A program made the translations under genes and the position numbers. Below the pieces are notes generated by a model that was given only the letters and a program-made list of their open reading frames with translations, made no database searches and had not been told where the DNA came from. A DNA stretch of 64,000 nt from assembly GCA_963703315.1 (NCBI GenBank), contig OY969811.1, positions 2,432,001 to 2,496,000 on the forward strand. Direction: 5' to 3'. Below, in pieces: positions 31,537-45,371 of the stretch (positions within the stretch are counted from its first letter, which is position 1; each line of letters starts with the position of its first letter). This DNA is from an uncultured cyanobacterium (lineage in GTDB: Bacteria > Cyanobacteriota > Cyanobacteriia > Pseudanabaenales > Pseudanabaenaceae).

Positions 31537-34500
31537 TTATGTTTGCGATTCGATCGCACCTTCGGCATCATTAGCGATCGCCTTTAAGCGATCCAACATA
31601 TCCGCAGTCACATCTTGCCACATCCCACGCTGATTCGCTTCTAGCAAGCGTTCCGACATATCTCGCAAAGCCCAAGGATTGCTAGATTTAATAAAATTCT
31701 GGACTTCAGGATTAAAGATATATGCCTCCGCAACCCCCTCATACATAAAGTCGGAAACGCAGTTAGTCGTAGCATCATAGGCAAATAGATAATCGAGCGT
31801 TGCCGACATCTCGAAAGCCCCTTTGTAACCGTGACGCATTGCCCCTGATATCCATTTGGGGTTAACGACACGTGATCGATAAACCCGCGCAATCTCTTCA
31901 CTCAATTTGCGAACCTTTGGCTGCGCCATGCGGGAATTATCGCCGAAGTACACTTCTGGCGCATTACCAGCTATGGATTTGACAGCCGTTGTCATCCCAC
32001 CCTGAAACTGATAATAATCATCGGAATCGAGAATGTCATGCTCACGGTTATCTTGATTTTGCAGCACGATTTGCATATTGCCAAGGCGTTGATTAAAGGC
32101 TTCAGGAGCCGATTTTCCTTCAGATTTGCTGGTGTAGGCGTAGGCACTCCAATTGATATAGGCACGGGCTAGATCCTGCTCACTCTCCCAGTTTTGCGAC
32201 TCGATCAAGCCCTGCAAACCTGCACCATAGGCACTCGGCTTCGAGCCAAATACCCGATAACGCGATCGCTCTTGGGCTTGTTCTAAAGTTAATCCTTCTC
32301 TTTGCCATTGTGCGGATTCTGCTTGGACTTTTGCCGCTAAGGGATTCTGATCGGCAGATTCATCAAGATTCGCAACCGCATTCACCGCACTATCAAATAG
32401 ATCGATCAAATTTGGGAACGCATCTCGAAAGAATCCCGAAATCCTCAAGGTGACATCGATACGAGGACGACCGAGGATTGATAAAGGCAAAATCTCAAAA
32501 TCCACCACTCGCCGCGATACGCCATCCCAAACAGGTTGCACTCCCAGTAAAGCCAGAGCTTCGGCTAGGTCATCACCTCCCGTTCGCATTGTGGAGGTTC
32601 CCCAAATAGATAGCCCTAGGGTTTGCGGATATTCGCCATGTTCTTGGGTATAGGTTTCGATCAGCACATCCGCAGCCTTGCGCCCAATATCCCAAGCGGT
32701 TTCCGTCGGTACGGCGCGAATATCTACAGAATAGAAATTGCGTCCTGTAGGTAATACTTCAGGTCTGCCCCTTGTCGGCGCACCCGATGCACCACTAGGC
32801 ACATATTCGCCATTGAGTCCACGCAGGAGATTGGTGATTTCTTGATTGGTTTTGTAGAGAGATGGTAAAAGGCGATCGCGAATCCATGTTAGTTCTTTTG
32901 GGATTGCAAGACCCTCATCCCCCAGCCCCTTCTCCCATGAAGGGAGAAGGGGAGCAAGATTTTTCCTGTCCCCCTCTCCCCCTTTGGGAGAGGGGCTAGG
33001 GGTGAGGGTATCCACCAAATCCGCCGCATATTCCTCTATAACTTCAACGGCATCGCCAATAATCCGACAATTCGCTAAGCGTGGATGCGAACTTGGCGCA
33101 AGCAACTCCCCTAAATCCGCAGTCAAGGGATCAAAATCTAATTGCCAATCCTGCGCGATCGCCCTAGTCAGTCCCAAACGATTAGCCGTAGGATTGCGGG
33201 CGATCGCTACTACTAAATCCCTTAACTGTCTCCCTTCTGGACATTGCCCGAAAATATGCAACCCGTCGCGAATTTGTGCTTCTTTAATTTCGCAGAGATA
33301 ACCATCGGCTGTCGTGAGAATTGTATTCAGCGAATCCTCTAAACGGTCTAAGGAAATCCCTAAATCATGATAGAGATTTTCCTGTTTGATGGTTTCTATG
33401 AGGCGATCGCGAATCATCCCTAAACGCGAAGGATCTAAAGTTTCTGCTTCGTAATATTCATCGATTAAGCCTTCCAATTGCTGCAAACCACCATACAACT
33501 CGGCGCGAGTCATTGGTGGCGTAAGATGATCGAGAATTACTGCTTGCGATCGCCTTTTTGCTTGAGAGCCTTCGCCGGGGTCGTTGACAATAAAGGGATA
33601 GAAATGGGGCATTGCTCCAAAAGCAGCTTCAGGATAGCAATTTTCTGATAGAGCTACACTTTTTCCGGGAAGCCATTCGAGATTGCCATGTTTGCCGATA
33701 TGGGCGATCGCATGGGCGTTAAACTTGTCGCGCACCCAATGATAGAAAGCCATATAGTCATGGGTCGGTTCTAAATCTGGCGCGTGATAATTGAGGGTAG
33801 GATCAAGGTCATAGCCCCGTGATGGCTGAATACCGACAAAAATATTCCCGAATTGAATGCCAGCGATCGCAAATTCTGTTTCACATTTTGGCTGATTCCA
33901 TCTTGACTGAATTCCATTTTGGACAGGTTCAGGCAAATTCTGAAAATAGTTTTGATAATCTTCTAGCGCTAAAGATTGATTAACTTGACGCAATCCAAAG
34001 GATTCGCGATCGTTAGTCACGCCTTTAGTTAACAACTTCATCAGTTCATCGCTAGTTTCAGGAATCTCACCAACGCTATAGCCCGAACTTCGCAAAGCTT
34101 TGAGAATCTCTAAACAACTAGCTGGCGTATCTAAGCCGACTCCATTGGCTAATCTGCCATCACGATTGGGATAGTTAGCGAGGATTAGAGCTATTTTGCG
34201 ATCGCACACCTCTGTATGCTTTAGCTGTATCCATTTAGCCGCCAGATCCGCCACAAAATTAATGCGCGATCGCACAGGTTCATAGGTCAATACTTCCGTT
34301 TGTAAAGCTAGATTCTGTCCCTGCATCGCTTTAAACGAAACAGCCCTCGTGATAATCCTGCCATCGACTTCAGGCAACACCACATTCATCGCCATATCGC
34401 GAGGATTGAGTCCTTGCGTACCATTTGCCCAAGTTTTCTTCAGTCCACCACTAAAAATCACCTGAAAGACTGGCACATTCAAAGCTTCCCATAGATCCAC

Positions 34501-35328
34501 TTGTGGTGTATCCGTTTTTAAACTCGCTAAAGAGAAGCTAGTCGTATTTAAAATCACATCGACTTTTTGACCAGATTCAGGTAAGCAATAGCGAATTAAT
34601 TCCGCTTGGACATCAGGTTCTTTTAATGATGAAACATAGATGGGTAAAGGCTCTAAATTGCGATCGCGCAAGGCTTCACATAAAGCAGCGATCGCCGCCG
34701 TATTCCCAGATAAATAATGAGCGCGATAAAAAAGAATCGCCACTCGCTCTCCCGATGGGAGAGGGGGCTGGGGGGTGAGGGTCTCATAAATTCCAATCCG
34801 AGGCACTGGTTGCGGAAGTTTATATTCAGACGCGACATCTAAAAATTCTTTAGCAACAAACTTCAATAGATTTTGATAGTTATTAACTCCCGCTTCGATG
34901 AAATATTGCCAAGCTTGATTTACTAAAGTTAGTGAGGTCGTAGAATGGCTAGTCAAACTAGGATCAGGACGCTCATCCCCCGGTAATACGATTAAGACCG
35001 CACCATTATTTAGTACAGTTTCCTTAACTACTTCCAATCCATAACTCCAGTAAGACTGCCCTCCAATTAATCTAACAATAATTACTTTTGCTTGCGATAG
35101 AACCTCTTCTGCATAGGTATCGATCGCGATTTGTTGCTGCAATTGCAATACATTCACTACCCTGATTTGTGGGAAATCTTCAGGTAATTGAGCAGTAGCC
35201 GCCGCAAGAGTCTGGATATCCGTATCGGCGGCAGTAATAATCACAATCGGTGCAGGTTGCTGCTCGACAAAAATTACACTGTCGGTGGACTGATTCCAGC
35301 CCCCTGATATGGTAGCGATACGATGCAT
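31537..35328 (-). CDS. cobN: Cobaltochelatase subunit CobN
   Basis: MHRIAT, GKHGNLEWLPGK, LPTGRNFYSVD, QDNREHD, NPKWI...HGYKGA; carries two in-frame repeat insertions. Confidence 0.95.
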   Translation of the reverse strand: MHRIATISGGWNQSTDSVIFVEQQPAPIVIITAADTDIQTLAAATAQLPEDFPQIRVVNVLQLQQQIAIDTYAEEVLSQAKVIIVRLIGGQSYWSYGLEVVKETVLNNGAVLIVLPGDERPDPSLTSHSTTSLTLVNQAWQYFIEAGVNNYQNLLKFVAKEFLDVASEYKLPQPVPRIGIYETLTPQPPLPSGERVAILFYRAHYLSGNTAAIAALCEALRDRNLEPLPIYVSSLKEPDVQAELIRYCLPESGQKVDVILNTTSFSLASLKTDTPQVDLWEALNVPVFQVIFSGGLKKTWANGTQGLNPRDMAMNVVLPEVDGRIITRAVSFKAMQGQNLALQTEVLTYEPVRSRINFVADLAAKWIQLKHTEVCDRKIALILANYPNRDGRLANGVGLDTPASCLEILKALRSSGYSVGEIPETSDELMKLLTKGVTNDRESFGLRQVNQSLALEDYQNYFQNLPEPVQNGIQSRWNQPKCETEFAIAGIQFGNIFVGIQPSRGYDLDPTLNYHAPDLEPTHDYMAFYHWVRDKFNAHAIAHIGKHGNLEWLPGKSVALSENCYPEAAFGAMPHFYPFIVNDPGEGSQAKRRSQAVILDHLTPPMTRAELYGGLQQLEGLIDEYYEAETLDPSRLGMIRDRLIETIKQENLYHDLGISLDRLEDSLNTILTTADGYLCEIKEAQIRDGLHIFGQCPEGRQLRDLVVAIARNPTANRLGLTRAIAQDWQLDFDPLTADLGELLAPSSHPRLANCRIIGDAVEVIEEYAADLVDTLTPSPSPKGGEGDRKNLAPLLPSWEKGLGDEGLAIPKELTWIRDRLLPSLYKTNQEITNLLRGLNGEYVPSGASGAPTRGRPEVLPTGRNFYSVDIRAVPTETAWDIGRKAADVLIETYTQEHGEYPQTLGLSIWGTSTMRTGGDDLAEALALLGVQPVWDGVSRRVVDFEILPLSILGRPRIDVTLRISGFFRDAFPNLIDLFDSAVNAVANLDESADQNPLAAKVQAESAQWQREGLTLEQAQERSRYRVFGSKPSAYGAGLQGLIESQNWESEQDLARAYINWSAYAYTSKSEGKSAPEAFNQRLGNMQIVLQNQDNREHDILDSDDYYQFQGGMTTAVKSIAGNAPEVYFGDNSRMAQPKVRKLSEEIARVYRSRVVNPKWISGAMRHGYKGAFEMSATLDYLFAYDATTNCVSDFMYEGVAEAYIFNPEVQNFIKSSNPWALRDMSERLLEANQRGMWQDVTADMLDRLKAIANDAEGAIESQT
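32912..33008. repeat. Inverted pair of G/C-rich palindromic repeats inserted in frame in cobN
   Basis: CCCTCATCCCCCAGCCCCTTCTCCC-atgaa-GGGAGAAGGGG and CCCCTCTCCC-ccttt-GGGAGAGGGGCTAGGGGTGAGGG; translated TLTPSPSPKGGEG...LLPSWEKGLGDEG. Confidence 0.85.
34743..34781. repeat. Single G/C-rich palindromic repeat in frame in cobN
   Basis: CTCTCCC-gat-GGGAGAGGGGGCTGGGGGGTGAGGG; translated TLTPQPPLPSGE. Confidence 0.8.
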
Positions 35329-38661: not shown

Positions 38662-38691
38662 AAAAAAGCACCCCGCAAGGGGTGCTTTTTT
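38662..38691. terminator. Bidirectional intrinsic terminator
   Basis: aaaaaagcacccc-gcaa-ggggtgctttttt. Confidence 0.75.
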
Positions 38692-39433
38692 ATTGGTTGG
38701 GGTCGATGCCTTGCGATCGCAAAATTGCCTCTAATCGATCTGCTCTTTGGTTTGCCTTTTCCTTAGCTAAGCGTTCCTGCTCCTCTGGCAATGGAATAAG
38801 TTCACCATCAGCATTAAAATAGCGCAATTGTCTCTCATGGATACCTAGATACAAATGTAATTGATCACTCCATAGATAGCCATTCTCATTAGGGGCGATC
38901 GCCTGATATAAACCATCAACTAAATGGAATCCAGCAAACTCTAATGTCTCTGGATGAAACCAAAAGTAATTAGGCACGCGCCAAATATCTTGATAGAGTT
39001 GTTTTTTTGCACCGCGATCCACTTTAGCTGTCGAATTAGATAATAATTCAATTACTAAATTTGGATACTTGCCATCCTCATCCCAAACTACCCAACTACG
39101 GCGATCGCGTTTCTCTGTACCCATCACCACGAAGATATCTGGTCCCGCGAAGTTTCGTGACTTGAGTTGCTTTTTGTTGTAATAAACCGTCAAGTTGCCA
39201 GAGATATAAAAGTCGGGGCGATCGCGCCAGAAGTATTCTAAAAGACGAATTAATAGGTCAATCTGGCGGCGGTGAAAGTCTGTTTCCAATTGTGGTTCAT
39301 CACTATATAAATTTGTGGGCAGTAGCTGAATTTCATCAATAACATCATCAATCAACTCTTCCCTGATTTCATTATTGATGGTTGTTTCGCTAACAGATGG
39401 TGGATTGACATTCAGTAGAACCATTGCTAGCAC
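38690..39433 (-). CDS. Uma2-family endonuclease
   Basis: SDEPQLET..H, GPDIFVV, PNLVIELLS.ST...DRG.KK, coiled-coil tail. Confidence 0.9.
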   Translation of the reverse strand: MLAMVLLNVNPPSVSETTINNEIREELIDDVIDEIQLLPTNLYSDEPQLETDFHRRQIDLLIRLLEYFWRDRPDFYISGNLTVYYNKKQLKSRNFAGPDIFVVMGTEKRDRRSWVVWDEDGKYPNLVIELLSNSTAKVDRGAKKQLYQDIWRVPNYFWFHPETLEFAGFHLVDGLYQAIAPNENGYLWSDQLHLYLGIHERQLRYFNADGELIPLPEEQERLAKEKANQRADRLEAILRSQGIDPNQ

Positions 39434-39592
39434 TCCATTACAAAAGTAACTTTAGTATAAGCCTAAATTTCGTTTTTAGGTGCGTATTCAGATTGTGAGT
39501 AGATAAGGTACTTTATTTCGCTTATTGAAAGTAATGATATAAATTAGCGATCGCTATATCAAACAATTATTTAACTACATCTATTTTCAAAG

Positions 39593-39994
39593 CTACCAAA
39601 TTGTCTGAATATTTGATAAGTTTCTGATTTTATGGTCTTTTGTAACTAGAGGCAGACCGAGGTATAGAGAAGTTGCAGCAATAATGCGATCGCCCATTTC
39701 TGGAACAATATCACGCGGAATTTGGGTAAAAGCTTTGGCTACTGGGGTATCTAATGGGACAACAACTAATTTTACAAGTGGATCGTCTATGAGTTGTAAA
39801 AGTTGCTCTAGAGAACTTGTGGGAATCCGATTTTTCTCAACTAAATAATTCATTTCTACAAGAGAAATGGCAGATATAAAAATTGATTCGCCATTGTTTA
39901 AGGCATTATCAAGGGAGGTTAATGCATTTGTTGATAATTTTTCTGGGCTTCGCAGATACCAAATAATTGTGTGGGTGTCAGCTACAACGCTCAT
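39593..39994 (-). CDS. vapC: VapC/PIN toxin
   Basis: VADTHTIIW, SAISLVE, DRIIAATS, LVTKD. Confidence 0.88.
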   Translation of the reverse strand: MSVVADTHTIIWYLRSPEKLSTNALTSLDNALNNGESIFISAISLVEMNYLVEKNRIPTSSLEQLLQLIDDPLVKLVVVPLDTPVAKAFTQIPRDIVPEMGDRIIAATSLYLGLPLVTKDHKIRNLSNIQTIW

Positions 39995-40230
39995 AGTTCA
40001 ATATCCTTGGGGAAGTTTGCCCACATTTCTTTTCTGTTTGTAGAAAGTTCTTCTTCGGTGAGGTTAATATCTGCATTTGCCCATAAGCCTTTGATGCTTT
40101 TACTTGGATTTTTAGGTGTTGTCTTAGCTTGCAAAAATTCGGCAAACTCTAACAGTGCTTGCTGTTTTTCGGTTGGTAGGGTTTTGATGACTGCGATTAA
40201 GGTTTCTTCGATTTTAGGTAATGTTTGCAT
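39991..40230 (-). CDS. DUF2281-like antitoxin
   Basis: LPTEKQQALLEFAEFL...KGLW; 4-bp overlap with vapC. Confidence 0.75.
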   Translation of the reverse strand: MQTLPKIEETLIAVIKTLPTEKQQALLEFAEFLQAKTTPKNPSKSIKGLWANADINLTEEELSTNRKEMWANFPKDIEL

Positions 40231-40277
40231 GATTTTGACTCCATTAGATTGTTAGATGACAACAAAAACAGTTCTCT

Positions 40278-43200
40278 TCATTCGTTTTTCTTAACCCGTT
40301 TTTTCTTCTCGACTTTGAGCAATGGCGCACTTAGGGCTTCATAGAGGCTAAATAAATACTCGATGCGGTTTAGTTCGCTAACAAAGGGCTGGGGACGATA
40401 GCAAAGGTCTACGGCTTTGTCTAGGGTTTGATGTGCTTTTACCAAGTCGGGCGGCATGGTAAGAGGATCATAAAGATCGGCGAGGCTGGATCTGACCTCC
40501 CCCTGCCCCTCCTTGCAAGGAGGGGAGTTAGACTCTAGCTCTTGTCTTCCGCTTAGCGAAAGTTTTTCTTGTTCCCCTCCTTGCAAGGAGGGGCTAGGGG
40601 AGGTGTATTTCTCGCGCACCGCCAAAACCAACCGCGCCGCATCTTCCACTTTTTGTTTTTGTTTGTCGCTTGCGTTTTCAGGGAATGGATAGTTGTTGTA
40701 AACGATAGTATTGGAATAGCGAAAACGACTTTCTAATCTTCCACAAACGTACTTAACCCAAGTCATGTGCATTTCAGAAGTGAGAACACCAAATAGATAA
40801 AAGCTAGAATCAGCAATAAAAGAGCAAAGATTGCTTGGCACTATAGTCTTATCAATAAATCCAAAAGGTACATATTTCCTATTCTCTGATGAAACTAATG
40901 GGACGATAATTGCGGAATCTGGATTATGCTTATCTCTGAAAGTTGTAGGATAGTCGGCTAAAAAGCGAGCTTGCTTATCAGGGCTTGCTAATCGTAGCTG
41001 TCTTACATTTTCAATCCTCTTCATCACCAAAGGCATTTTCTTTAATTCCTGTGGCTGTGCGTTAACTAGCCAAAGACACCATCGACTTTTGCCGTTGATA
41101 AACTCTTCTGAACCAATGAATTGCTTAAAATACTTAGCTGATAAAGGCTCTTCTTGAATAAATTGATATTTCTCTTGATCGGTAAAAATCAAGTTTCCAC
41201 CATCTATAGCCTTATTCCCAGCTAACATTGATGGGACATTACAAATCGGCTTAGTTCTTTTCAAAATCACTAAATCATTACCTTCAGTTAGATATGGATT
41301 AATATTTCTAACCTTTCTCTGTGTGGGTTCACCCTTAATATTTAGATAATCAAAGATTCTCTTATTTTCAACATCCTGCAAACCGAAGCCAATAATTACA
41401 CAATGCACAGCAGCATTAGCTTTAGCTTCATTACTCCAACTAAAAGTACGATGAGCAAAATGAATTTTAATCTTGTATTTATTGTAAAGCTCTTGCCAGA
41501 GAATCCCAACTTGTTCACCTTGAGAAATAGAACTCGTACTAACAAAAGCACATTTGACCTCCCCTAGCCCCTCCTTGGAAGGAGGGGAACAAGAATTTAG
41601 ATATTGAGCAGCTTTCAAGTACCAAGCGCAAACATAATCTAGTACACCAGCCCCATTTACCCCAGCAAAAATCATCTCCATATCTGACTTTTGCTCAACA
41701 CTTTGCAGATGCTTCCCTACAAAAGGCGGATTACCCAAAATATAATCAAATAATCCCCCACGTAACTCTTTCTCTTGTCCCCCTCCTTCCAAGGAGGGGC
41801 TAGGGGAGGTTCTTAAATGTTCCCTAATATCCTCCAGCACCCCATCTAAATTCTCGAAAATTAAATTGTTGGCATATCGCAAAACCGTAATCCCAACACC
41901 GCACAAAAATTCATCTCTAATCGCATCATATTCTTGACCCTCCTTCGTAAAATGTTGCCCGCCATCCAACTCGATCGCTAAATTAGCACTCGGACAAAAG
42001 AAATCCAAAATGTAATTACCAATCGAATGCTGTCTTCTAAACTTAAATCCATGCAATTGTTTGCCCTGCAATGCTTTCCACAAAGCCACCTCCGCAGGAG
42101 TTGCATTATTTCGCAACTCTCGTCGAAAATCTTTCTTACTTGCAAGATTACTAATCGCCTTATAAGGAACTTGATCGCCTAAATCTTCTTTTCCTCCTTT
42201 CAAGGAGGGGCTAGGGGAGGTCATACCCCTTTCTCCTTTCAAAGAAAAACTAGAAGAAGTTGTAGAGAACTTTGGAACCACCCCTAACCCCTCCTTTGAA
42301 GGAGGGGAACAAGATCTCCAATCAATCCGCAACGAATTACCATGCACAATCTTCGCCGACTTCTTCAACGGCAACCGCACAAAATACTGCCCAAACTCAT
42401 TACTCACCTTCACATTCATCTGATGGTCGATCAACCACATCGCCACCTCAGCAACCCGCACCGCAAACTCATCATACTCAATCCCCGCAAACTGATCCAC
42501 ATCCACCTGAATAAACAACCGCACATCCAGAAAACTCTTGTGCTTTCTGTACAACTCCTTTAAAATTTCAAGCTCTAAATCTCGCAACTCCCGATAAGTA
42601 ATAATCAAGAAATTGCCACAACCACAAGCAGGATCGAGAAAATGCAAATTTGCAATCTTTTCATGTAACTCCTCTAGCTTGCCCTTACTCCCCTTCGCTT
42701 TCTCAAACTCAACATACAAATCATCCAAAAAAAGCGGTCTAATCAACTTTTGAATATTCTTCTCAGAAGTATAATGCGCCCCCAAATTTCGCCGTTCCGT
42801 CTGATTCATCACCGCCTGAAACATCGACCCAAAAATTGCAGGCGAAATCTTACCCCAATCAAACGCACAAGCTTTTAACAATATTTCACGCATCCCACTG
42901 TCAAACGACGCAGGCTGCAAAGGCTCCGCAAATAGCTTCCCATTCACATAGGGAAACTGTGTCAGATTCTCATCTAAATTTTTTAATCGCCGATCAGGTG
43001 GCGTATTCAATACATGAAAAATCGAAGCAATATGCATCGCCAAATCGCTACCATCTTCCTTAGTATGGCGATCGACATATTCCCAGAAAATCCCCTTATT
43101 AAAAATGCTCGTATCATCGGCAAACAGACAAAATAACAGCCGTACCAGATAGACCTCTAAATCATGCCCACTATAGCCAATCTCCTTGAGGCGATCGTGC

Positions 43201-43700
43201 AGTTCCCCCATCAATTCCGCAGCTTTAATATTGACAGGATCTTCATCCTTATAAACCCGTTTCTCATATCCCGCCATAAAGCCGAATAGATGCACATGGT
43301 CTACAAAACCCTTTAGCTCAAACTCTTTAGTCTCATCCGTATCCAAATCATAGAGTCTGAATTTCTGAAAATCCGACACCAAAATATACTTGGGTAACTC
43401 ATGCTCCTTTAAATTAGGGAAATAATCCTTAGCCTGTTGTGTCGCCTTGTCCAAGTCCTTGCCCCTAGACTTATGCTCCACCAAAATCGTCCCCTTCCAC
43501 AGCAAATCAATAAACCCCTGTTTGTTATCCGCCTTTTTAATCGGTAGCTCAAAACTCCCCACCCGCCGCCGTGAAATGCCAAACACATTAAAAAAATCAT
43601 TCCAAAAAGATTGAGACTCTGACTTCTCTGAAGTTTCACTTTCCCACTCCTTAGAAAAGGCGATCGCTCTTTGCTTAATCTCATTCCAACTTAGCGGCAT
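40278..43700 (-). CDS. MmeI-like type IIL restriction-modification enzyme with inserted DUF559 endonuclease domain
   Basis: N-terminal PD-(D/E)xK (FIDLLW...VEHKS), GAHYTSE, motif I DPACGCGNF, motif IV GNPPF, C-terminal SLADLYDPLTMP; ~189-aa insert between RIDW and FDYILGNPPF. Confidence 0.9.
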   Translation of the reverse strand: MPLSWNEIKQRAIAFSKEWESETSEKSESQSFWNDFFNVFGISRRRVGSFELPIKKADNKQGFIDLLWKGTILVEHKSRGKDLDKATQQAKDYFPNLKEHELPKYILVSDFQKFRLYDLDTDETKEFELKGFVDHVHLFGFMAGYEKRVYKDEDPVNIKAAELMGELHDRLKEIGYSGHDLEVYLVRLLFCLFADDTSIFNKGIFWEYVDRHTKEDGSDLAMHIASIFHVLNTPPDRRLKNLDENLTQFPYVNGKLFAEPLQPASFDSGMREILLKACAFDWGKISPAIFGSMFQAVMNQTERRNLGAHYTSEKNIQKLIRPLFLDDLYVEFEKAKGSKGKLEELHEKIANLHFLDPACGCGNFLIITYRELRDLELEILKELYRKHKSFLDVRLFIQVDVDQFAGIEYDEFAVRVAEVAMWLIDHQMNVKVSNEFGQYFVRLPLKKSAKIVHGNSLRIDWRSCSPPSKEGLGVVPKFSTTSSSFSLKGERGMTSPSPSLKGGKEDLGDQVPYKAISNLASKKDFRRELRNNATPAEVALWKALQGKQLHGFKFRRQHSIGNYILDFFCPSANLAIELDGGQHFTKEGQEYDAIRDEFLCGVGITVLRYANNLIFENLDGVLEDIREHLRTSPSPSLEGGGQEKELRGGLFDYILGNPPFVGKHLQSVEQKSDMEMIFAGVNGAGVLDYVCAWYLKAAQYLNSCSPPSKEGLGEVKCAFVSTSSISQGEQVGILWQELYNKYKIKIHFAHRTFSWSNEAKANAAVHCVIIGFGLQDVENKRIFDYLNIKGEPTQRKVRNINPYLTEGNDLVILKRTKPICNVPSMLAGNKAIDGGNLIFTDQEKYQFIQEEPLSAKYFKQFIGSEEFINGKSRWCLWLVNAQPQELKKMPLVMKRIENVRQLRLASPDKQARFLADYPTTFRDKHNPDSAIIVPLVSSENRKYVPFGFIDKTIVPSNLCSFIADSSFYLFGVLTSEMHMTWVKYVCGRLESRFRYSNTIVYNNYPFPENASDKQKQKVEDAARLVLAVREKYTSPSPSLQGGEQEKLSLSGRQELESNSPPCKEGQGEVRSSLADLYDPLTMPPDLVKAHQTLDKAVDLCYRPQPFVSELNRIEYLFSLYEALSAPLLKVEKKKRVKKNE
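40495..42314. repeat. About seven copies of a ~35-bp palindromic repeat (ACCTCCCCTAGCCCCTCCTT-nn-AAGGAGGGGA) in both orientations, all in frame
   Basis: Copies at 40495-40527, 40572-40604, 41557-41594, 41773-41810, 42191-42221, 42226-42260 (degenerate), 42277-42314. Confidence 0.9.
41811..42150 (-). other. DUF559 (Vsr-like PD-(D/E)xK) endonuclease domain inside the MTase domain
   Basis: RRELRNNATPAEVALWKAL...FKFRRQHSIGNYILDFFC...LAIELDGGQH...D..RD..L...GITVLRY.N. Confidence 0.88.
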
Positions 43701-43913
43701 ATCTGAAAATGTTACGGCATAATTTTAGTTAATATTTACACTAACATTTATTTCGTAAACTTATCTATAATTAACTTTAGGAAAGGAAACAATAGGAAAA
43801 TTGCGATCGCCTTCGTTCTTTAATCTCTGATAAAAAACAAGAATTTGAAAAATCTCTCTCTATTTAATCCAGAGTAAAATCGTCTTAACCTATTCAACAA
43901 GGAATATCTAAAT

Positions 43914-44141
43914 ATGCTACTACAACGCATCACCATAGACTGGAATATCTGTCATGGTAAACCCTGCATCAGAGGTTTGCGATATCCAGTCGAGATGATC
44001 TTAGAACTCCTCAGTTCAGGCATGACCACCGAAGAAATACTAGAAGACTATGAAGATCTAGAGCGAGATGATATTTTTGCAGTCCTAGCCTATGCCACAA
44101 AACTTAGCCAAGTAAAAAGCATCCACAAGGTTCTCGCATGA
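43914..44141 (+). CDS. DUF433 antitoxin-like protein
   Basis: RITID..ICHGKPCIRGLRYPV..ILELL..G.T.EEILEDY.DL. Confidence 0.88.
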   Translation: MLLQRITIDWNICHGKPCIRGLRYPVEMILELLSSGMTTEEILEDYEDLERDDIFAVLAYATKLSQVKSIHKVLA

Positions 44142-44491
44142 AATTTCTCATTGATGCTCAATTACCCGTGCGATTATCCCATCTTTTAAAATCAATGGGA
44201 CATGATGCAATCCATACCAAAGAATTAGCCCTCAAAAATGCCACACCAGACACGGAAATTAATACACTCTCAATTTGTGAACAGAGAATTGTCATTACCA
44301 AAGATTCTGATTTTTGGGATTCTTTTTATGTTAGTCAAGAACCTTATAAACTTCTGCTAGTGACCACAGGAAATATTAGCAACAAAGAATTAGAATCTTT
44401 GTTTGTTAAAAATTTAGAACAATTAGTTAATTTGCTAGAGCAACATTATTTGATTGAAATGTCACGAGATTCAGTCATCGTTCATCAGTAA
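44138..44491 (+). CDS. DUF5615 PIN-like toxin
   Basis: MKFLIDAQLP, D..I, RIVITKDSDF; ATGA overlap with DUF433. Confidence 0.85.
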   Translation: MKFLIDAQLPVRLSHLLKSMGHDAIHTKELALKNATPDTEINTLSICEQRIVITKDSDFWDSFYVSQEPYKLLLVTTGNISNKELESLFVKNLEQLVNLLEQHYLIEMSRDSVIVHQ

Positions 44492-44597
44492 ATCGATAAC
44501 ATGTATCAAATAAGTAGTAAATACATAGCGGTTGACTAATTTCTCTGATTTCTAGCAAAAACAAAAATTTGAAAACACTTTAAGGAGATAAACAACC

Positions 44598-44819
44598 ATG
44601 CTCAAAAGTTATGAAGCGACCTATGAAAATGGACAAATTAAATGGCTTTCCGAACAGCCAGAAATTACCTCAGCACGAATTATCGTAACCATCCTCGAAG
44701 AAACTAAACCCCAAATAAAACACCGTTTTCCCATCCCTGACATGGCTGGTAAAGGCAGAACATTAGGTGATATCGTCAGTCCCATTGTTGATGAAGAGGA
44801 TTGGGAATGTCTGAAATAA
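44598..44819 (+). CDS. Antitoxin-like small protein
   Basis: MLKSYEATYENGQIKW...GDIVSPI...DW; overlaps start of PIN gene. Confidence 0.7.
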   Translation: MLKSYEATYENGQIKWLSEQPEITSARIIVTILEETKPQIKHRFPIPDMAGKGRTLGDIVSPIVDEEDWECLK

Positions 44820-45315
44820 TTGTACTCGATACCCATATTTGGTTTTGGCTAATCAACTCAGACTTTGATCGATTTCCCACATCTTGGCTAGAGCGCTTTG
44901 AGTTAGCCGAGATATTAGCGATATCTCCTCTATTTGGTTTTGGCTAATCAACTCAGACTTTGATCGATTTCCCACATCTTGGCTAGAGCGCTTTGAGTTA
45001 GCCGAGATATTAGCGGTATCTCCTCTATCTTGCTATGAGATTGCCTTAGCCCAAAGTCGAGGTAGATTAGAACTAACCTGTTCATCCGAAGAGTGGTTTA
45101 GCAGAGCATTAGCGCCTGCCAAAATTGAACTATTTCCACTAACTCCCGCAATTACAGTCAGAGCCGTAAACCTATCACCCATCCACAAAGATCCCTTCGA
45201 TCGCCTAATCATTGCCACTGCCTTAGAATATGGCGCAAAACTTGCCAGTGTTGACAGCCTATTTTCTAAATATCCTGAATTAGAAAATCATCTCATCGTA
45301 TCGTCCATAGGATAA
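44807..45315 (+). pseudogene. vapC: VapC/PIN toxin frameshifted by a 95-bp tandem duplication
   Basis: IVLDTHIWFW...SCYEIA...HKDPFDRLIIATA...LASVD; duplication 44836-44930 / 44931-45025 gives a stop at 44945-44947; removing one unit restores 137 aa. Confidence 0.88.
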
Positions 45316-45371
45316 TGATAGGCAGCGCGGAGTGTCACCTATTATTTAAAGAACTTGGGAGATGAGGATCG

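Follow-up and report, generated by a model that had tools for sequence, protein, structure and literature searches.

A stretch of 64,000 nucleotides from an uncultured cyanobacterium of the Pseudanabaenaceae (hereafter the window, C1:2432001-2496000 of a 4.57 Mb single-contig genome) carries on its minus strand, at positions 40278..43700, an MmeI-like (type IIL) restriction-modification gene of 1140 amino acids (aa) and five Pfam domains, within which the base composition of silent sites changes sign. Three zones follow one another along this gene, namely an arm rich in G and T, a variable module of neutral composition and an arm rich in C and A, and the same zones recur at hsdS and beside HEAT, WD40 and TPR arrays. 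This amounts to a new rule, in which G and T predominate on the strand that points to an exchanged specificity module, the module itself is neutral and the sign is set by the side of the module and not by the gene. The position, hand, mirror symmetry and lineage range of this flanking skew, or halo, together with the mosaicism of the alleles that carry it, are matters of direct observation, and the skew is likely to be the footprint of repeated recombination that swaps the specificity module between alleles. The initial annotation of the locus anchored the flip on a cluster of hairpin repeats inside the gene; the feature it described is real, but that anchor is wrong, and the reach of the feature is wider than first proposed.

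Silent-site skew and mosaic alleles of the MmeI-like gene

Skew was measured by scoring each degenerate third position against the genome-wide usage of its codon box, with open reading frames taken from a simple caller. Across the 5' conserved arm, which comprises the N-terminal domain, the spacer and the first half of the methyltransferase (42318..43700, minus strand), the coding strand is G/T-rich at silent sites, with 348 of 444 degenerate codons ending in G or T against 236.9 expected (z 11.2). The excess is strongest at 42318-42539, where the hand count of 72 codons in 74 ending in G or T and none in A was reproduced (G45 T27 C2 A0), and where 68 of 70 degenerate codons end in G or T against 38.4 expected (z 7.5). 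The second methyltransferase half (41301..41744, minus strand) is moderately G/T-rich, with a keto fraction of 0.64-0.69 across alleles, and the target-recognition domain (TRD; 40677..41282, minus strand, Pfam aa 807-1008) is hypervariable and near-neutral. The 3' conserved arm, which is the MmeI C-terminal domain (40278..40493, minus strand), has an A/C-rich coding strand and a keto fraction of 0.36-0.42 across alleles; the earlier count of 42 codons in 70 ending in A or C at 40490-40281 was likewise recovered (C24 A18 T17 G11), and this side of the flip is modest, at 27 of 69 ending in G or T against 35.8 expected (z 2.2). The flip measures 0.24 against a random-site standard deviation of 0.055, a value of 0.2 being reached at 10 of 1498 random sites, and the locus ranks tenth among same-hand flips in the genome. 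The sign crosses at 40,740, at the 3' edge of the TRD (bootstrap 5-95% 40,554-41,196), about 140 bp from the two downstream repeat copies (40495-40604).

The skew does not end with the gene, and neighbouring genes follow the strand rather than their own direction, as had been reported (z 4.9 for opposite-strand neighbours upstream and z -6.4 for those downstream). At lower coordinates, a DUF2281 antitoxin-like gene and a PIN-domain gene (39593..40230, minus strand; Pfam) weakly continue the sign of the 3' arm, the bin of the PIN gene (39501-40000) having a plus-strand G/T excess of +0.094 (z 2.2), and the Uma2 gene at 38690-39433 shows no skew (z 1.0). At higher coordinates, the plus-strand genes for DUF433, DUF5615 and one further small protein (43914..44819; Pfam) extend the sign of the 5' arm by strand and not by gene direction, with values of -0.126 (z -3.6) for the genes at 43914-44488 and -0.122 (z -2.1) for those at 44598-45320. 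The proposal that DNA running 5' to 3' toward the repeats is keto-rich stands as far as strand and symmetry are concerned, both strands being G/T-rich toward the centre in a rotationally symmetric manner; its centre has to be moved, and is very probably the variable specificity module rather than the repeats.

Alleles of the gene place conservation, skew and exchange in register. Twenty homologous loci were fetched, and the 15 near-complete ones were aligned with this gene to give 16 alleles, in which the 5' arm has a mean amino-acid identity of 0.82-0.98 and the TRD is the least conserved part (0.48-0.55 at aa 840-960). DUF559, a domain inserted in this gene, and all repeats are absent in 8 of the 16, and seven of these eight show the 5'-arm profile; the repeat-free allele L031, for example, reads +17 +23 +29 +10 0 -25 per 500 bp. 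The 5'-arm skew is weak in L045, the most divergent allele, and the 3' arm is weak in L034, L035 and L036, while L033 ends before it. TRD types assort independently of the repeats and are common to otherwise different alleles: L045 is 67-85% identical in the 5' arm yet has the TRD type of this gene, and for the repeat-bearing L038 and L043 identity is 76-96% over most windows of the arm and 50-59% in the TRD core. An environmental contig carries a repeat-free allele in which some 434 bp of the TRD (40801-41236) are replaced by 437 other letters, and an environmental assembly, which may stem from the source sample, is identical to the gene at 40278..43700 over the pieces covered. Judged by these identity windows, the relationships of the TRD are incongruent with those of its flanks, as expected of exchange. 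Close named relatives of the gene come from Pseudanabaena, which makes this the probable genus. Records under the names Dolichospermum, Planktothrix and Limnoraphis (L152, L163 and L181) cluster with Pseudanabaena alleles at more than 88% DNA identity, which suggests transfer between families.

As for the product, the Pfam families MmeI_N, MmeI_hel, MmeI_Mtase, MmeI_TRD and MmeI_C each exceed their cut-off in the 1140-aa protein, so that a single chain holds N-terminal, spacer, methyltransferase, recognition and C-terminal domains in the type IIL layout; by its domains the product is a restriction-modification enzyme of the MmeI type that carries a DUF559 insert in frame, its activity being predicted. 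The gene is flanked by small toxin-antitoxin-type genes, and in several other genomes, too, the DUF2281 and PIN pair stands downstream of the MmeI-like gene. At 44836-45025 a PIN-like frame is cut by a tandem duplication of 95 bp (99% identical), and that gene is probably broken. Elsewhere among the alleles, in L046 (G006:C1) an opposite-strand frame, probably a transposase, has been inserted near aa 100 and splits the MmeI-like gene, and the repeat-bearing L041 (G003:C1) lacks the whole recognition domain, in frame.

Recurrence in this genome and in other lineages

Among the 666 genes of at least 1.5 kb in this genome, the within-gene flip exceeds z 4 in 22 and falls below z -4 in 8. Twenty genes, namely 19 of these 22 (this gene and two others being left out) and a second MmeI-like gene, were scanned against Pfam: six belong to restriction-modification systems, nine are NACHT, NB-ARC, WD40, TPR or TPR-CHAT proteins, and the other five are a helicase-methylase, a TPS-domain protein, a KAP NTPase and two glutamate synthases. 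Where the pattern is clear, the module scores about 0, the conserved domain on its 5' side +25 to +40 and the domain on its 3' side -20 to -35; the plateau stops at the start of the HEAT, WD40, HsdS or TaqI_C module, and the skew extends into neighbours of either orientation. For 19 homologues of a NACHT-HEAT gene, the arm at aa 100-400 is mostly 76-95% codon-identical with a skew of +23 to +42, the array has an identity of 13-44% and a skew near zero, and the end of skew and the end of conservation match at about aa 500; three homologues have a divergent block within the arm, where most of the skew is lost. All three hsdS loci of the genome have a flip centred on hsdS (z 8-10). A general 5'-to-3' codon gradient was considered and rejected, as it is absent in genes below 2 kb; genes above 3 kb do average a gradient, halo genes included. 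Six of the eight opposite-hand flips belong to one repeated gene of 1593 bp, probably an insertion sequence, the six copies having z about -6.7 (G000:C1:3892645, 3133588, 3208568, 345582, 4511377 and 4018647).

Beyond this genome, 80 named MmeI homologues were scored as methyltransferase minus C-terminus (five records lacked a zone). The contrast is +0.86 in Pseudanabaena-like records (11/11 positive), +0.52 in other cyanobacteria (20/21), +0.02 in Bacteroidota (20/37) and +0.13 in other phyla (5/6), and the flip holds over third-position G+C values of 0.21 to 0.49. Type I operons provide an arrangement in which gene and side are separated, since in the order M-S-R hsdM is positive and hsdR negative, and in the order R-S-M the reverse is found. 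Methylase matches outside this genome and the family f2 numbered 45, of which 37 are covered by 35 loci, the 8 weakest being left out; the first 16 loci were picked after the skew had been seen and 19 more were then added, and five proved unscorable. Of the 30 loci scored outside picocyanobacteria, 28 have a positive hsdS-centred flip and 23 exceed z 4, lineage counts which overstate the statistical weight as related loci are not independent. The halo of type I systems is flat to 2 kb, falls to half by 3-4 kb and is gone past 6 kb. The small-genome family f2, poor in the octamer HIP1 and by inference the picocyanobacteria, has a flip above z 4 in only 1 of 20 scored loci (mean 0.019 for 19). 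Controls without HIP1 are called non-cyanobacterial and not Bacteroidota, the samples for G118 and G156 being the same genomes; 17 of the 20 were scorable, with one above z 4 and a mean of -0.018, and the hsdS flip of E. coli K-12 is 0.03.

Candidate causes of the skew

The cause first proposed, in which the hairpin repeats or the DUF559 nuclease would provoke recurrent breaks or fork stalls, is extremely unlikely. The MmeI-like gene holds seven hairpin repeats in frame, of which six are near-intact and one is decayed; inverted copies flank DUF559 (41814-42137, Pfam aa 522-629) in an in-frame insert at 41769..42314 on the minus strand, and the repeat search also places a lone repeat in the second methyltransferase half (41557..41594) and an inverted pair between the recognition and C-terminal domains (40495..40604), both in frame. 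It is true that the crossing lies near two repeat copies and that both MmeI-like genes of the genome with DUF559 and repeats have halos. However, there is no sign change across five of the seven copies: the DNA between the five upstream ones keeps the 5' sign (41811-42180 z -4.1; 41600-41770 z -2.9), contrary to the reported flip across the cluster, and the DUF559 insert, keeping that sign too, is a passenger as regards the skew. The skew is neither confined to repeat-bearing genes, for repeat-free homologues carry it, nor centred on the repeat family genome-wide, 46 other clusters being flat (47 clusters of the wider family were found by a pattern that misses the subfamily of this gene, and the second MmeI-like locus was removed); a family repeat lies within 2 kb in only 4 of the 27 strongest same-hand flips inspected, leaving 23 without. 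Skew in repeat-free homologues and the want of centring on repeats across the genome are two of the results that the initial annotation had named as refuting it. As a general cause or centre the repeats are therefore ruled out by repeat-free alleles, flat clusters and constancy of sign, a small added effect being compatible with the data. An explanation by codon usage, whether through a mosaic of differing donors, the spread of one skewed ancestor or translational selection, is very improbable as well. MmeI alleles are related and exchange segments, which means that they are not independent observations; but unrelated families converge on one hand, opposite-strand neighbours follow the strand, non-coding DNA leans the same way, the flip persists across the range of third-position G+C given above and the sign of hsdM changes with operon order, by which this explanation is largely refuted.

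The repeats themselves show some further features. In repeat-bearing alleles (L037-L039, L041-L044 and L046) they occupy up to four in-frame sites, with near-perfect copies, linkers that vary in length and tandem upstream copies that decay; the inverted pair at 40495-40604 is missing from the repeat-free alleles and from the repeat-bearing L043. The core of the subfamily of this gene (at most 3 mismatches) occurs at only three places outside it. The cobN gene (31537-35328) has in-frame repeats of the wider family (G000:C1:2464919-2464992 and 2466764) and no halo, and the second MmeI-like gene (G000:C1:1658381-1661869) carries an in-frame DUF559 within inverted repeats, at a different insert site and with a different repeat subfamily. 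The report that the copy at 42226..42260 had degenerated mostly by G>A on the plus strand was confirmed, as 9 of 31 core positions differ from the neighbour copy and 8 of the differences are G>A. Decay of this copy extends to all 9 repeat-bearing alleles, with changes largely in common and adjacent copies near-intact, and for this reason it is weak evidence for deamination.

Base composition constrains the process more closely. Fourfold sites hold G.44 T.32 A.15 C.09 in the 5' arm and C.54 A.22 T.17 G.07 in the 3' arm, which corresponds on the pointing strand (the one whose 3' direction leads to the module) to a G content about 2.4-fold, T 0.9-fold, A 0.5-0.6-fold and C 0.4-fold; twofold sites show log-odds shifts of about 1.3 for A>G and about 1.0 for C>T, non-coding DNA leans in the same direction, and arm G+C is 0.53-0.61 against 0.405 for the genome. 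Deamination of exposed tails by C>T and A>G, which had been put forward, fits these figures poorly, given that the A>G polarity is at least that of C>T, that G versus C dominates fourfold sites and that G+C is not lowered. Near-equal transitions and undiminished G+C are better suited to a rule based on mismatch type than to cytosine deamination.

Such a rule could operate in the following manner. Phage-driven selection for new specificities would retain recombinants whose tracts span the module, so that a site to its left would always lie in a left arm and a polarity bias would accumulate in the arms and cancel elsewhere. Within the heteroduplex, mismatches of the G.T type and of the A.C or C.C type would be kept or removed unequally in one arm, with the outcome that G, and less so T, would become fixed on the pointing strand; the pathway would likely be tied to HIP1 and to the natural-transformation system of cyanobacteria. 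Recombination tract lengths would give the decay with distance described above for type I systems, and a fixation bias requires no raised mutation rate. Taking conversion and mutagenesis jointly, a footprint of module swapping is probable, and biased conversion in heteroduplex arms as the source of the halo is a tentative choice somewhat short of an even chance.

Two alternatives share part of this geometry. One keeps the same centre and the same swaps and attributes the skew to mutational bias: a non-matching loop would be cut and the opposite strand resected 5' to 3', leaving the pointing strands single-stranded and subject to C>N and A>N damage and error-prone repair. Its polarity is that of resected 3' tails, the C>N and A>N changes at human hotspots, including C>G and A>G, match the loss of C and A seen here, as far as the available part of that report goes (PMC7615360), the decay with distance fits, degeneration of the one repeat copy removed C from the pointing strand, and neutral mutation-bias simulations with rate variation give the same allele spectrum. 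Against it stand the intact repeat copies that adjoin the decayed one and the silent-site distance, which is lower in the arms (0.17-0.30) than in the module (0.39-0.49), a comparison of arm with module only and not with core genes. Spontaneous deamination of adenine is, moreover, far slower than that of cytosine, despite which A>G polarity at least equals C>T, and G+C is not lowered; overall this reading is rather unlikely. In the other alternative, a cassette is copied into new loci by inward synthesis from both ends or by converging forks, and the flip marks the middle of the cassette. This agrees with the presence of the gene between different core genes in different genomes, with a skew that often ends abruptly at core genes and with a spectrum dominated by G over C, as is typical of replication skew. 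It is nonetheless improbable, since most genes are strongest beside the module and reach zero at its boundary with no slope from the cassette ends, the centre tracks hsdS wherever it is placed in the operon, genes with an off-centre module (N-terminal TPR or C-terminal array) flip at the module, and no integrase or transposase was seen by Pfam among the scanned genes of 38690-44816.

The involvement of HIP1 is suggested by a small halo of the same hand around its 8231 sites in the genome (+0.035 at 15-25 bp to the left, -0.025 to the right). On each strand the DNA 15-100 bp 5' of the site is G/T-rich, whichever strand the gene lies on, and the effect extends to the main codon classes and to non-coding DNA. 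Of the other palindromes or near-matches, six are without a halo of this type and a seventh, GCTAGC, leans weakly the same way. The HIP1 halo is possibly the footprint of polar repair or recombination at HIP1. Genes of the ComEC and MutS families are found in the genome; a NucS candidate gave a weak partial match only (E 7.7e-6) and was not used. It has been reported, in the accessible text, that HIP1 in homology arms raises transformation, and a Chi-like role has been proposed (Kamoku and Nielsen, 10.1101/2024.09.10.611283), while the parts available of other studies describe a model of HIP1-directed repair (Elhai 2015, PMC4390886) and the co-evolution of HIP1 with DNA-uptake genes (PMC13756078). 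That HIP1-bearing cyanobacteria possess a polar pathway of recombination or mismatch editing by which G is placed on strands that point toward HIP1 sites and exchanged modules is conceivable, if doubtful. An origin of the large halo in long HIP1-free gaps is not supported, one top halo gene having 4 HIP1/kb and the rank correlation being 0.08.

Several observations weigh against a swapping footprint, against its conversion form or against its link to HIP1. Swapping is read from allele mosaics, and recombination events or intermediates were not themselves observed. The mismatch rule leans on general rankings of mismatch repair and mismatch stability (G.T versus A.C, G.G versus C.C). An allele-frequency test for fixation bias gives gamma 5.1 at purine sites, a result matched by neutral simulations with rate variation in 5 of 40, so that it does not separate conversion from mutagenesis; pyrimidine sites show nothing beyond simulation on segment trees, and the Microcystis and Nostocales allele sets show no significant fixation bias. 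In other cyanobacteria arm G+C (0.62-0.66) is close to that of distant genes (0.615), and the raised G+C consequently stands out in this genome alone. Support for the HIP1 link comes largely from a single contrast between lineages, L382 and L385 are HIP1-rich yet have no flip, and within 4 kb the large halo is no lower beyond a HIP1 site, as it would be beyond a boundary. Halos are weak or absent in G042, G043, G058 and G060, and two glutamate synthase large-subunit genes (G000:C1:1374809-1379413 and 1292660-1297291) have same-hand flips, though weaker ones (z 5.6 and 5.0), with no obvious variable sensor module. CHAT domains of other cyanobacteria have no general skew (mean -0.01, 14/26 negative), two of the three strongly negative ones belong to this genome, and the tandem TPR-CHAT genes of G068 carry the opposite sign. 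In the latter genes (L317, G068:C1:1403000-1422999) the CHAT ends are G/T-rich and the TPR starts C/A-rich, which suggests a skew centre at the gene junctions.

Comparison with known systems

No description of module-centred same-hand halos or of skew at HIP1 was found in the literature searched, mostly without subscription papers and the supplements on GRINS, which are the closest described phenomenon. According to the portions available of the GRINS study (2021, PMC8256042), these regions have correlated G/C and T/A skews that are strongest at third codon positions, with abrupt switches from G+T to C+A inside working genes; they are defined as duplicated regions within a genome, 77% of the cyanobacterial ones lie in transposases, single-copy skewed regions are mentioned, and GRINS have been connected with gene conversion and with altered domain specificity. 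The halo resembles them in its correlated G+T versus C+A bias, its third-position peak and its abrupt changes. It differs in that GRINS are duplicated over more than 500 bp at more than 80% identity in the same cluster or genome, while a blastn search of the arm, TRD and C-terminus against this genome returned only 73 bp at 92%, 36 bp at 92% and 124 bp at 70%, and in that the 5' arm, with |GC| 0.37 and |TA| 0.12, falls outside the second defining property. On these two grounds the halo is not filed as GRINS despite its GRINS-type skew. The accessible text on GRINS gives no rule of sign or centre, whereas the halo has a fixed hand, a neutral module and arms common between genomes; with regard to recombination and specificity, the counterpart here consists of mosaic alleles between genomes, from which we infer exchange, and of predicted specificities.

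Intense local skews of the GRINS type have had no known mechanism, and HIP1 has had no settled function. The rule described here offers a means of locating hypervariable defence modules and their boundaries in a single genome, warns that silent sites beside swapped modules are not a neutral baseline and makes of the pattern a prediction testable by one transformation experiment in a laboratory cyanobacterium. If the polar pathway is real, every heavily swapped immune sensor would bear a readable scar from which domain-swap hotspots could be mapped in one genome, GRINS-type skews would gain a geometry and a cause, and HIP1 would gain a measurable in-vivo footprint.

Other known systems share single aspects of the halo. 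Mutation near the hotspots of meiotic breaks (Hinch et al. 2023, PMC7615360, in the sections available) is strand-asymmetric and rotationally symmetric over a few kb, and C and A are depleted, as in the halo, on the strand pointing to the centre; at those hotspots the nuclease is known, repair is of the eukaryotic kind and new mutations are in slight excess, in contrast to a bacterium with a near-saturated composition. The movement of TRDs in restriction-modification genes, which probably proceeds through homologous recombination in the conserved flanks (Furuta and Kobayashi 2012, PMC3467074), resembles this locus in its exchange of domains, and the available part of that article reports no compositional footprint in the flanks. 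Similarly, a polar process at HIP1, as the Chi-like and repair-site proposals would have it, would give the small same-hand halo seen here, while the accessible text of those papers (10.1101/2024.09.10.611283, PMC4390886) mentions strand skew neither at HIP1 nor at swapped domains. With the MmeI family of type IIL enzymes, finally, the product shares the full Pfam set, to which it adds an in-frame DUF559 and four repeat-derived loops, its activity again being a prediction.

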